The translations under genes and the position numbers were made by a program. From Escherichia phage T4, in sequence record NC_000866.4: 64,000 nt of DNA. One strand, given 5' to 3'. The first letter of the stretch is position 1. Every line of letters starts with the position of its first letter. Below, piece by piece: positions 42 to 26,613 of this stretch. Below the pieces are notes generated by a model that made no database searches, was not told the DNA's origin, and worked only from the letters and a program-made list of their open reading frames with translations.

Positions 42-1607
42 ATGACTATCAAAACTAAAGCTGAACTTTTGAACAAATGGAAGCCATTACTGGAAGGTGA
101 AGGTTTACCGGAAATTGCTAATAGCAAACAAGCGATTATCGCTAAAATCTTTGAAAACCAGGAAAAAGATTTCCAGACAGCTCCGGAATATAAAGACGAA
201 AAAATTGCTCAGGCATTCGGTTCTTTCTTAACAGAAGCTGAAATCGGTGGTGACCACGGTTACAATGCTACCAACATCGCTGCAGGTCAGACTTCTGGCG
301 CAGTAACTCAGATTGGCCCAGCTGTTATGGGTATGGTACGTCGTGCTATTCCTAACCTGATTGCTTTCGATATTTGTGGTGTTCAGCCGATGAACAGCCC
401 GACTGGCCAGGTATTCGCACTGCGCGCAGTATATGGTAAAGACCCAGTGGCTGCCGGTGCTAAAGAAGCATTCCACCCAATGTATGGTCCAGATGCAATG
501 TTCTCTGGTCAGGGTGCTGCTAAGAAATTCCCAGCTCTGGCTGCTAGCACACAAACCACAGTAGGTGATATCTATACTCACTTCTTCCAGGAAACTGGTA
601 CTGTATATCTGCAAGCTTCTGTTCAAGTAACAATCGATGCTGGTGCGACTGATGCTGCTAAATTAGATGCTGAAATTAAGAAACAAATGGAAGCTGGTGC
701 ACTGGTAGAAATCGCTGAAGGTATGGCTACTTCTATCGCTGAACTCCAGGAAGGTTTCAATGGTTCTACCGATAACCCATGGAATGAAATGGGCTTCCGT
801 ATCGATAAGCAAGTTATCGAAGCTAAATCTCGTCAGCTGAAAGCTGCTTACTCTATTGAATTAGCACAAGACCTCCGCGCTGTTCACGGTATGGATGCTG
901 ATGCTGAACTGTCTGGTATTCTGGCTACAGAAATTATGCTGGAAATCAACCGTGAAGTTGTTGATTGGATTAACTACTCAGCTCAGGTTGGTAAATCTGG
1001 TATGACCCTGACTCCGGGTTCTAAAGCTGGTGTATTTGACTTCCAGGACCCAATTGATATTCGTGGTGCTCGCTGGGCGGGTGAATCCTTTAAAGCTCTG
1101 TTGTTCCAGATTGACAAAGAAGCAGTTGAAATTGCTCGTCAGACCGGTCGTGGTGAAGGTAACTTCATTATCGCTTCCCGTAACGTAGTTAACGTTTTGG
1201 CTTCAGTTGATACCGGCATTTCTTATGCTGCACAGGGTCTGGCTACCGGCTTTAGCACTGATACTACCAAGTCAGTATTTGCTGGTGTTCTGGGTGGTAA
1301 ATACCGCGTATATATCGACCAGTATGCTAAACAGGATTATTTCACTGTAGGTTATAAAGGTCCGAACGAAATGGATGCTGGTATTTACTATGCTCCATAT
1401 GTAGCTCTGACTCCGCTGCGTGGTTCCGATCCGAAGAACTTCCAACCGGTAATGGGATTCAAAACTCGTTACGGTATCGGTATCAACCCATTTGCAGAAT
1501 CCGCTGCTCAGGCTCCGGCTTCTCGCATCCAGAGCGGTATGCCTTCTATTCTGAATAGCCTTGGTAAAAACGCTTACTTTAGACGTGTATATGTTAAAGG
1601 TATCTAA
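42..1607 (+). CDS. 23: Major capsid protein gp23 (precursor)
   Basis: 521-aa ORF, ATG at 42 verified; N-terminus MTIKTKAELLNKWKPLLEGEG and length match T4 gp23 as recalled. Confidence 0.96.
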   Translation: MTIKTKAELLNKWKPLLEGEGLPEIANSKQAIIAKIFENQEKDFQTAPEYKDEKIAQAFGSFLTEAEIGGDHGYNATNIAAGQTSGAVTQIGPAVMGMVRRAIPNLIAFDICGVQPMNSPTGQVFALRAVYGKDPVAAGAKEAFHPMYGPDAMFSGQGAAKKFPALAASTQTTVGDIYTHFFQETGTVYLQASVQVTIDAGATDAAKLDAEIKKQMEAGALVEIAEGMATSIAELQEGFNGSTDNPWNEMGFRIDKQVIEAKSRQLKAAYSIELAQDLRAVHGMDADAELSGILATEIMLEINREVVDWINYSAQVGKSGMTLTPGSKAGVFDFQDPIDIRGARWAGESFKALLFQIDKEAVEIARQTGRGEGNFIIASRNVVNVLASVDTGISYAAQGLATGFSTDTTKSVFAGVLGGKYRVYIDQYAKQDYFTVGYKGPNEMDAGIYYAPYVALTPLRGSDPKNFQPVMGFKTRYGIGINPFAESAAQAPASRIQSGMPSILNSLGKNAYFRRVYVKGI

Positions 1608-25410: not shown

Positions 25411-25436
25411 TTTGTGCAATCTTTGGAAAATAAAAA

Positions 25437-25456
25437 AGGACTCCCGAAGGAGTCCT
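25437..25456 (-). terminator. Rho-independent terminator after the 30.9-position ORF
   Basis: GGACTCC-cgaa-GGAGTCC followed on minus strand by UUUUUUAUUUU. Confidence 0.65.
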
Positions 25457-25460
25457 CAAC

Positions 25461-25637
25461 TTATGCTTTCTGCTTACCAAAACGAGAAGCATCATCTCGA
25501 AGAACCGCACGTGCTCGGCGCATGATCTTCTCAACAGTTTGATTGATACGAGAGTTCGACCCACGCTTGTAGCCAGCGCGTTTAGAATCACCAACTTTCT
25601 TTTCAACTGCTTTCTTTGCTTTAGCTTGTTTTGCCAT
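25461..25637 (-). CDS. small highly basic protein (T4 30.8/30.9 position)
   Basis: 58 aa from the internal ATG (MAKQAKAKKAVEKK...); track ORF extends 14 codons further upstream with no ribosome-binding site. Confidence 0.5.
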   Translation of the reverse strand: MAKQAKAKKAVEKKVGDSKRAGYKRGSNSRINQTVEKIMRRARAVLRDDASRFGKQKA

Positions 25638-25881
25638 TATAAATTCTCTTTTAAATGAAAATGCAGGACTTATTGGCATTGCCTGCGCAAGCCCTCAAGG
25701 GGAACATAGGTTTTTGGATATTTAACGACCAGGATAACCATAAACCCGTCATCATTCACATTCAAGAGGTACACCGTAAAACTGTCGGGGTCTTAAAACT
25801 ATAATGATTCGCAAATCATTAATCAGACAGTTCGACGGCTCCTCGATTTAGCTCACACTAAGGCAGTGAATCTCCAATAAA

Positions 25882-26130
25882 TTACTTCAGTGTTACCACA
25901 AAGTGACGAACTGCTTTTCGTGCAGCAGAAGCCAGAGGCTTAGCATATTTAAGTTCATCTTTTTCCTGAAGCTCAGCAGCTAATGCAGTTTGAGCAGGAT
26001 TCAGATGTTTGAAATAACGCAGGATTTCAAGAGCTTCGGCTTCAACATCAATAGATGCGCCATAGTTTTCGTGACCATTATTCCATGCGTTTCGTTGCAG
26101 TTCAAGAGCGTGTTGTAATTGTTTAATCAT
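25882..26130 (-). CDS. rIII: rIII lysis-inhibition accessory protein
   Basis: 82-aa ORF recognised as T4 RIII. Confidence 0.85.
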   Translation of the reverse strand: MIKQLQHALELQRNAWNNGHENYGASIDVEAEALEILRYFKHLNPAQTALAAELQEKDELKYAKPLASAARKAVRHFVVTLK

Positions 26131-26277
26131 TTAAAAATTCTCGTTAGAGATTAAAACTCGGTAGTCACGTTCTTCTGAATTTCATCTTCTTTCGACAGAT
26201 CTCTCAGTTGTAGACTACCACATAGAATTGTTCGGTTAACTTATTATTCCGACACCCAATTCATATTATTATTTATA

Positions 26278-26613
26278 TCACTTATAAAGACACGGAATAG
26301 CTTTATAGTGACAGGTAACGAATTTTTGTTTAATTTCTTTTGGCTGCTTAAGACCCAGAGCTACAAAAGGATGCGGAACATTTCGAATTTGACCAACTGG
26401 AAGAGAAGTCAAATCACCAACTTCGCAGAAACCTTCAGGAACATCAGGACCGACAGAGTGAACTACACACAGTTCAGGAACTTCACCTTGAACACGTTTA
26501 CCGATAATAAGTCCTGATTCTGTAACTTCTTCATCACCGGCTTGTGCAGGTTCAGAAACTAAAATAACATATTCACCGACAGCACGAATTGGTAGCTGTT
26601 GTACTTCAGACAT
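26278..26613 (-). CDS. 31: gp31 co-chaperonin (GroES-like)
   Basis: 111-aa ORF recognised as T4 gp31. Confidence 0.92.

Follow-up and report, generated by a model that had tools for sequence, protein, structure and literature searches.

The window analysed here, a 64,000-nucleotide (nt) stretch of Escherichia phage T4 (NC_000866.4), contains between the genes rIII and 30.9 an unannotated spacer whose minus-strand transcript carries a chain of conserved RNA structures, including a pseudoknot (C1) and a unit (H1) resembling ToxI, the antitoxin RNA of type III toxin-antitoxin (abortive-infection) systems. The window was 100% identical to OZ209023.1, and its positions, which are used throughout, are converted to that record by adding 103,856. 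Features lie on the minus strand unless stated otherwise, where the gene order is gene 31 (26278-26613), rIII, the spacer, 30.9, an intrinsic terminator and 30.8. The open reading frame (ORF) of rIII encodes 82 amino acids (25882-26130; 'lysis inhibition' at 129738-129986 in the T4 record), and its stop codon (25882-25884) forms the upstream edge of the spacer. The downstream edge is formed by 30.9 (25461-25637; annotated at 129317-129493 in T4), an ORF for a very basic protein of 58 amino acids that falls into PHROG 1427 ('unknown function') and has no Pfam match. A terminator scan placed the intrinsic terminator at 25436-25457 (a 9-base-pair stem with five GC pairs, then a U run), and an ARNold terminator is annotated in R5505 at the equivalent position; this is the end of the 31-rIII-30.9 transcription unit. 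A sub-threshold Rfam match to Atu_C8 (25422-25505, 31.4 bits) was merely the 30.9 terminator hairpin together with its U tract. Just past the gene 31 stop codon, at 26270-26277, lies a T4 late-promoter consensus (TATAAATA), from which a predicted transcript would span rIII, the spacer and 30.9. No promoter-like sites were found inside the spacer by promoter scan, and ARAGORN reported no tRNA or tmRNA in 25500-26300.

A preliminary description of this DNA had placed a gap of about 200 nt at 25680-25881. The gap itself is real, and its extent has to be revised. The boundary at 25680 is wrong because it rests on an ATG at 25679 that is not conserved (ACG in RB69, GTG in S16) and that sits within the loop of a hairpin, C3, described below. 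The start of 30.9 at 25637 (ATGGCAAAACAAGC) is the same in all relatives and is annotated so in T4 and RB69, and the spacer therefore comprises 25638-25881, or 244 nt, a stretch that carries no annotation in T4. As had been supposed, such a gap is unusual for this genome: of all the spacers among 68 annotated coding sequences in the surrounding 40 kilobases of T4, only the 619-nt nrdB intron exceeds it, and the next-largest measure 158, 147 and 145 nt. The accompanying statement that no ORF above 25 codons exists on the minus strand was inexact, as the ORF list shows two of 34 codons each (25651-25755, beginning with ATG, and 25670-25774, beginning with GTG); the plus strand has an ORF of 49 codons (25655-25804).

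Conservation across T-even phages, which had been suggested as a check, was borne out. An unannotated rIII-30.9 spacer of 119-422 nt persists in eight genera: Tequatrovirus, Mosigvirus (RB69, moskry), Gaprivervirus (VR7), Gelderlandvirus (S16), Jiaodavirus (KP185), Moonvirus, Tegunavirus and Karamvirus. It is lacking only in distant phages (L040, L042, L043 and L089; loci compared here carry L numbers), in which 30.9 or a terminator comes straight after rIII. The C1-C3 core, taken as the 123 nt at the 3' end of the T4 spacer, matched 769 phage records once each, all with at least 80% identity and 733 with at least 90%, compared with ~77-82% DNA identity for the less conserved flanking genes of S16 and VR7. 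In the T4-like phages examined, the spacer ranks among the non-coding RNA regions with the highest conservation.

This conserved region is built of modules, which in T4 follow one another from 5' to 3' as H1, H2, C1, C2, C3 and a hairpin at the Shine-Dalgarno (SD) sequence of 30.9. C1, C2, a hairpin and the SD hairpin were present in every spacer examined, and the other modules were patchy. The 119-nt spacer of ECp13 holds only C1-C2-C3-SD, H1 and H2 both being absent; the 120-nt spacer of Karamvirus holds only C2-C1-hairpin-SD, and RB69 has no H1. Alignments A1 and A2 revealed a variable insertion point between H2 and C1 (25757/25758), which is occupied by 0 nt in T4, by 44-52 nt (hairpin H3) in R5505, RB69 and VR7 and by 154 nt (module B) in MLP2 and a51; among the carriers of H3 or module B are relatives that are ~99% identical elsewhere. 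The order of modules also differed by genus, being X-C1-H1-B-C2-C3 in KP185, B-C1-C2-C3 in Moon and C2-C1-hairpin in Karamvirus. In one locus (L039, 1749-1900), C2-C1-H1-hairpin-SD was intact and the 30.9 frame began with TTG and was unrelated after ~12 codons; the leader can therefore outlive the gene that it precedes.

RNA folding of the minus-strand transcript, a further check that had been proposed, showed that the spacer folds better than shuffled sequences (-67.4 kcal/mol, z = -2.34). Within it, C1 (25706-25751; model R1) forms an H-type pseudoknot supported by covariation, in which helix S1 (25745-25750 with 25727-25733) is crossed by helix S2 (25736-25741 with 25706-25712), with an almost invariant linker of 13-14 nt (CGUUAAAUAUCCAAA, 25713-25726). 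The crossing helices were proposed by inspection and then tested on an 18-sequence MAFFT alignment. In this alignment, 83% of the C1 cells were paired, compared with 34-49% in shifted controls whose 3' partners had been slid, and the covariation score was 0.466 compared with about 0.1 in the controls; none of 500 shuffles reached the observed values. Changes on both sides were seen in nine of the 13 pairs (four of six in S1 and five of seven in S2), such that S2 reads GGUU/AACC in T4, UUGGUU/AACCAA in KP185, CAAGGUU/AAUCUUG in L026, GUAGUU/AACUGC in Karamvirus and UGUGAG/CUCACA in Moon. C1 also contains several invariant or frequent G-U pairs, which on the other strand would be C-A mismatches. 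Since these pairs are tolerated on one strand only, the fold belongs to the sense transcript and not to the DNA or to an antisense RNA. R1 detected a single copy in the window (56.8 bits) and one C1 per locus in 42 of 45 rIII-anchored and 38 of 40 30.9-anchored loci, always between rIII and 30.9, and C1 was absent where 30.9 was absent. The pseudoknot core is a candidate for a new Rfam RNA family.

No matches to R1 were found beside genuine toxI arrays or in unrelated phages that carry ToxI. A scan for tandem C1-like linkers returned five matches in unrelated organisms and no enterobacterial array. They included a 51-nt repeat in seven copies in a metagenome-assembled genome of Bacillota (L049, 1097-1455) and a 42-nt repeat in 3.9 copies in Allobacillus salarius (L050, 940-1101). 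The latter contains ACGTTAAATGTTCAAAA, a 17-mer identical to the C1 linker of L026, with no toxin gene visible in the short locus, and this likeness is probably a coincidence.

Upstream of C1, a 79-nt long irregular hairpin, H2 (25766-25844; GAGG...CCUC), was identified with RNAalifold, its apex consisting of an 8-base-pair stem (the AAUGAUU-UGCG-AAUCAUU region). Five of its 25 pairs show compensatory changes; in VR7, for example, CCGU/ACGG is replaced by CCAC/GUGG and CUGUC/GACAG by UUAUC/GAUAA, and L016 and L025 have CCAU/AUGG. Here, too, invariant or frequent G-U pairs (alignment columns 9-75, 15-69 and 21-63) would become C-A on the opposite strand. In S16 and PP01 the apical 44 nt of H2 have been cleanly excised, with the basal stem retained. 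Downstream of C1, two smaller hairpins were recognised by eye. C2 (25689-25705; GUUCCCCUUGAGGGCUU), with a CCC/GGG stem, occurs in all genera, with CCUC/GAGG and CCCUAUGGGG as variants, and precedes C1 in Karamvirus. C3 (25663-25688; GCGCAGG-CAAUGCCAAUAAGU-CCUGC) varies in few independent events: in S16 its CAGG/CCUG stem is replaced by an extended CUGG/CCAG, and in KP185 and Moon by GGGAGC/GCUCCC, accompanied by a large insert. The last element, as read from the sequences, is a putative hairpin at 25644-25661 (UUUUC-AUUUAAAA-GAGAA) that would cover the SD sequence of 30.9; other genera have UCUCC-AAAAU-GGAAGA, and pairing of the SD sequence with an upstream pyrimidine run appears by eye to be possible in all of them. 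The best Rfam match in the spacer was a weak one, between the region from C2 to the SD hairpin (25635-25695) and the DUF2815 RNA, a hairpin of phage 5' leaders (14.5 bits, with 41.2 required); S16 gave no such match, and the resemblance is probably due to chance.

As possible contents of the gap, the preliminary description had named a long structured leader, a site of processing and a small RNA; it had not anticipated the shuffled modular architecture or the connection to a toxin-antitoxin defence. The first of the three options is well supported by the covariation in the crossing helices of C1 and in the 25-pair H2, by conservation exceeding that of the flanking genes, and by the putative SD-covering hairpin. 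The spacer is conserved, covarying in its base pairs, strand-specific and modular.

Directly after the rIII stop codon lies H1 (25845-25877; UUGGAGAUUCACUGCCUUAGUGUGAGCUAAAUC), a 33-nt unit assigned as ToxI-like through two sequence models (R2 and R3) and synteny. The H1 of VR7 and moskry (AGGUGAUUCGCUACCUUAAGUGCGGCUAGAAAAUC) was first recognised as the 36-nt ToxI repeat, and this was then verified. By blastn, the KP185 unit matched 67 small enterobacterial plasmids several times each, and in one of the plasmids examined, pNMEC-O75B, 5.6 tandem copies of AGGTGATTTGCTACCTTTAAGTGCAGCTAGAAATTC stand directly upstream of a coding sequence annotated as a type III ToxN/AbiQ family toxin; such a 36-nt tandem array ahead of the toxin gene is found in E. 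coli plasmids. The published ToxI numbering, with a U9-A25 pair, a U16-U18 loop, critical residues C27 and U28, and cleavage after A32 (PMC3475682), fits the pNMEC-O75B repeat. The units of VR7, moskry and KP185 keep GCUAG exactly, including C27 and U28, the ToxN-contact residues at which single changes abolish antitoxicity (PMC3475682).

Homologues of ToxN with 36-46% identity were found on Enterobacter, Klebsiella, E. albertii and E. coli plasmids (L093-L097, L046), and the ToxI arrays at these toxIN loci form distinct subfamilies with repeats of 36-37 nt in 2-5.6 copies. The phage units divide along the same lines. Those of VR7, moskry and KP185 correspond to the canonical ToxI subfamily and that of E. 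albertii pESA139_2; those of L041, L058 and Yen9 to the Enterobacter cloacae P2 subfamily (GGUGAUACGCUACC...GUGCGAACUYGAAAAUC); and those of a51, L086 and T4 to the subfamily of pB207_F (E. coli) and pKpnC6 (K. pneumoniae), GGAGAGUC[A/G]CUACC...GUG[U/C]GAAGUU[A/G]AAA. With model R3, which was built from bona fide plasmid ToxI units only, VR7, moskry and Yen9 scored 47.9-52.9 bits (E about 1e-7), KP185 30.9 bits, L086 and a51 21-22 bits, and MLP2 and PP01 16.2 bits. At the level of sequence, the H1 of the top-scoring relatives is homologous to genuine ToxI and is unmistakably a single unit of a type III antitoxin RNA. Rfam is silent on H1 because Rfam 15 contains no ToxI family; a genuine toxI array likewise gave no such match.

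ToxI units were also observed outside the T4-like phages. Complete, unannotated units scoring 45.8-48.1 bits with R3 occur in unrelated phages (L100, 805-843; L101, 804-842; L102, ~797-870), lying in E. coli Kuravirus XT32 between the genes for terminase and portal, ahead of a terminator in Salmonella phage 7-11, and as two units between tRNA genes in the T5-like Klebsiella phage pzk-kv7. A two-unit ToxI query matched 200 phage records, among which only phiTE carries an annotated pseudo-ToxI.

The T4 unit is a positional orthologue of the VR7, moskry and Yen9 units, and its best pairwise match (27/39) is to the ToxI of E. coli pB207_F. It keeps the core duplex 9-11/23-25 as C9 A10 C11 / G23 U24 G25, which represents two compensatory pair changes relative to U9 G10 C11 / G23 C24 A25; in alignment A7, 90.9% of the core-duplex cells were paired, with a -2 register equally possible. 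It also keeps GCUA, but after a 1-nt insertion and without G30. At its 3' end, an AAAU (25846-25849) is identical to the ToxN cleavage motif AA^AU, as judged from the sequence, the ToxI numbering of PMC3475682 and the plasmid arrays. The 31-nt core of the T4-type H1 is identical in S16, a phage of another genus, which argues against free decay; lateral transfer is also possible. A blastn search of the plasmids with the T4-type H1 gave chance matches only, because no 11-mer word is shared, and the link to the pB207_F subfamily was found via the fetched plasmid toxN loci. The T4 H1 is best seen as a putative diverged positional orthologue of the ToxI-like units. A role as a small RNA or processing site, the remaining options of the preliminary description, would be plausible for H1 only, since it is related to ToxI, which ToxN cuts at AA^AU, and ends in AAAU.

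Further modules were observed near rIII in related phages. Module B (~137 nt; GCGGCAAGUGCAUGCUACCCCGAGG...CUUAUCCUCGAGAAAUCGAACCCGGAACCUUUAAGCUAACGGUGUGCAACAGAUAAGAGC) is absent from T4 and is inserted at the equivalent of 25757/25758. It occurs in MLP2 (L001, ~690-830, minus strand) and a51 (L003), as well as in L011, L012, L015, L021, L022, L025, L028-L037, L041, L044, L058, L066 and L092, and is kept in T4-like phages from E. coli to those of Klebsiella, Citrobacter and Yersinia. It shows compensatory changes (UCGA/UCGA to CCGA/UCGG to UAGA/UCUA; UAUAUA/UAUAUA to UAUACA/UGUAUA; CUUAUC/GAUAAG to UCUAUC/GAUAGA), had no match in Rfam, plasmids or E. coli genomes, and looks like an undescribed structured RNA. 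Module D (GGUAGUC-UACAACUGAGAGAUCUGUCGAAAGAAGAUGAAAUUCAGAAGAACGU-GACUACC) lies in T4 at 26160-26219, in the gene 31-rIII spacer upstream of rIII. In KP185 and Moon it is found inside C3 upstream of 30.9, with a covarying closing stem (GGGAGC/GCUCCC) and inner pairs changed from CUGA/UCAG to CCGA/UCGG. As its location differs between phages, structured modules move between the two spacers that flank rIII. Four more small hairpins, whose loops are conserved and whose stems covary, recur in relatives and are absent from T4, namely X (GCCCAC-NNNN-GUGUACGC-NNNN-GRUAAC; L034, 1755-1785), E (GUUGCC-GNAA-GGCAAG-UUAA; L030, L037), H3 (CACGCGUCAGAAAAAGGUUAUCUGUCUAAGUCGUG; L018-L020, L027) and F (GAGAGGUCUUACACCUCUC; L031, L045).

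We propose, at about an even chance, that the spacer combines an accessory antitoxin-mimic module with a structured translational leader for 30.9. It would be a conserved non-coding segment of the gene 31-rIII-30.9 transcripts, organised as a sense-strand chain of autonomous RNA modules. Its universal 3' half (C1, C2, C3 and the SD-pairing hairpin) would act as the translational leader or operator of 30.9, in which folding or a bound factor would set the access of ribosomes to a weak, partly sequestered ribosome-binding site. The bound factor could be the basic 30.9 protein itself, by analogy with the leaders of gene 32 and S15. The 5' half (H1 and H2) belongs to a set of accessory modules that come and go and change their order even between close relatives, and these look like trans-acting RNAs; the ToxI-derived H1 would bind in trans ToxN-family endoribonucleases freed when the phage shuts off host transcription. 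H1 lies in the sense orientation with rIII and 30.9, between the predicted late promoter and the terminator. The T4 spacer RNA would then be functional and have both of the proposed activities, and the diverged H1 of T4 may exert some effect. Judged from these comparisons, the spacer probably helps control 30.9 and may help T4 blunt toxin-antitoxin defence.

Several results weigh against one or other part of this proposal. The T4 H1, which is the only match to model R2 (canonical ToxI plus non-T4-type phage units) in the window, scored a marginal 18.7 bits (E=0.085), and its score with R3 was not significant (11.8 bits, E=2.4). It has no AAAU on its 5' side, and it is a single unit, with no tandem array, no adjacent toxN and only rIII and 30.9 as neighbours. 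The lack of an array and of toxN is as expected for a mimic, and H1 has therefore been filed as ToxI-derived and not as an antitoxin gene. T4 is strongly restricted by plasmid-borne canonical toxIN, and its known counter is the protein TifA (PMC9391042); the restriction speaks against the T4 unit being an efficient inhibitor of that ToxN. The 30.9 protein showed no similarity to TifA. Among the modules, H1 only has a bacterial counterpart: neither C1-C3 nor module B nor an H2/H3/D/X/E composite had a blastn match among 72,556 plasmids and 5,426 E. coli genomes. As regards the leader, no co-variation was found between the C1 linker and the 30.9 protein subtype, Karamvirus has C1 and C2 in inverted order, and the distance from C1 to the start codon ranges from ~60 to 330 nt depending on the phage, which is unusual for a riboswitch-type switch.

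In a rival account, the whole spacer, H1 and H2 included, would be only a cis-acting leader or operator of 30.9, the ToxI ancestry being a historical accident that brings T4 no anti-defence role. This account is possible and clearly less probable. Consistent with it, every module belongs to the 5' untranslated region of 30.9, where sequestration of the ribosome-binding site is possible, C1 accompanies 30.9 in 38 of the 40 loci and disappears with it, the T4 H1 is too diverged to score as ToxI, and T4 is still sensitive to canonical toxIN. By contrast, H1 and H2 are dispensable, as seen in ECp13 (both) and RB69 (H1), and module order and distance to the AUG vary. In addition, the H1 variants track the plasmid ToxI subfamilies, a pattern difficult to account for unless ToxN binding has been under selection.

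A broader and rather improbable reading would make the spacer, together with the modules of the gene 31-rIII spacer, an RNA-only counter-defence island of decoys. Each module (C1, C2, C3 and H2, and B, D, X, E and H3 in relatives) would bait a different host RNA-binding defence or processing protein; ToxI mimicry would be the first module to be recognised, and the 30.9 protein a possible partner or chaperone of the RNAs. It is also quite unlikely that the hairpins are mRNA stability or processing elements without a specific ligand, giving 3' protection to rIII and stabilising the 5' end of 30.9 once RNase E, RegB or RNase III has cleaved the mRNA. A run of stable hairpins straight after a stop codon, inside a polycistronic unit that ends at the 25436-25457 terminator, would suit such a function, as would the GGAG motifs (RegB sites) at 25871-25874 in H1 and 25840-25843 at the base of H2. 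Stems suffice for generic stabilisers, yet the C1 linker (CGUUAAAUAUCCAAAAC) and the loop of H1 hardly change from genus to genus, and C1 is a pseudoknot with covariation in both helices.

A small protein gene or genes, or a decayed gene, is a highly improbable source of the conservation: ORFs of 34-62 codons are present and annotated in some records (a 62-amino-acid ORF in R5505), and ATGATG precedes C1 in many phages, but ATGATG is missing in Karamvirus and Moonvirus, substitutions compensate pairing rather than being synonymous, no PHROG family matches the spacer ORFs, and single-base indels within them in close relatives break the frames between T4 and RB69 types and leave lengths of 5 to 34 codons, on which ground any small-ORF or upstream-ORF reading was rejected. 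There is equally little to be expected of a DNA-level element, such as a recombination hotspot, replication origin or protein-binding site: modules are exchanged and reordered among phages, so that recombination does occur at the site, but the many conserved G-U pairs fit sense-strand folding only, H1 has the same orientation as the transcripts, and the promoter scan of the spacer found no promoter-like site.

The combination of antitoxin mimic and structured leader favoured here can be compared with known systems. Pseudo-ToxI of phage PhiTE is a phage-encoded ToxI-like RNA that acts as a mimic against ToxN (Blower et al. 2012, PMC3475682). Like it, H1 is phage-encoded, non-coding, homologous to the 36-nt ToxI repeat and co-oriented with its neighbouring genes, and H1 units of T4-like phages, those of the VR7 type among them, share with PhiTE the compensatory U9C/A25G change, the 2T loop and the additional 3' A. 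Unlike PhiTE, which has at least 1.5 expandable repeats, H1 consists of one unit only, set within a larger structured spacer, and it occurs as several subfamilies matching different plasmid ToxI types, with a strongly diverged copy in T4. With ToxI itself, the H1 units share a length of 33-37 nt, the GCUACC...AGUG core, the 9-11/23-25 duplex and an A-rich 3' end with AAAU; they differ from it in having no tandem array or toxN and in residing in a virulent phage, in T4 with a score of only 11.8 bits. Above threshold, Rfam 15 gave no match for the 4-kilobase region, the isolated spacer or eight related loci, and this includes preQ1-I, pistol, the DUF2815 RNA and the S15 leader.

The T4 gene 32 mRNA and the E. 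coli rpsO/S15 leader carry autoregulatory leader pseudoknots. C1, too, is an H-type pseudoknot that lies in a 5' leader, ahead of a weak ribosome-binding site, and the gene concerned encodes a small basic protein of the nucleic-acid-binding type; C1 differs in having no sequence similarity to them or Rfam match, and in its variable distance to the AUG and permuted order with C2. In the preQ1-I riboswitch and the 5' half of pistol, the loop of a short hairpin pairs downstream of an A-rich linker. C1 shares this layout, with a linker 8 nt longer than that of preQ1-I, and pistol env25 contains CCACGUUAAAUAG, resembling CCACGUUAAAUGU of some C1 copies. Both identities, suggested by the CGUUAAAUA linker, were rejected: neither of the two Rfam covariance models matched the isolated spacer even at E<=10, the C1/C2 order is inverted in Karamvirus, and pistol is further disfavoured by the absence of its P2/P3 helices and cleavage-site context. 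The spacer modules also recall the PeSL cassettes, reportedly described by Arbiol et al. in 2010 as intergenic stem-loops that shuffle among T4-type genomes, carry an early promoter and flank ORFs of the hyperplastic region. Like these, the modules are short intergenic stem-loop cassettes shuffled between positions and genomes; unlike them, they have no promoter, show conserved loops, include a pseudoknot and occur only in the two spacers on either side of rIII.

Neither a limited literature search nor Rfam yielded a description of the spacer or its pseudoknot core, of T4-like phages carrying ToxI-like units, or of the match between subfamilies. The concept of a ToxI mimic is known from one Pectobacterium phage, to which the spacer of T4-like phages would add an RNA antitoxin mimic joined to a structured leader. 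If the ToxI-like module is active, RNA antitoxin mimicry would span hundreds of T4-like, T5-like and podovirus genomes and not one phage. The pairing of H1 variants with plasmid ToxI subfamilies would, if true, record an arms race and bear on the work on toxIN and TifA in T4, the reference phage. The universal pseudoknot core, for its part, provides a handle on rIII and 30.9, genes of poorly understood regulation and function.

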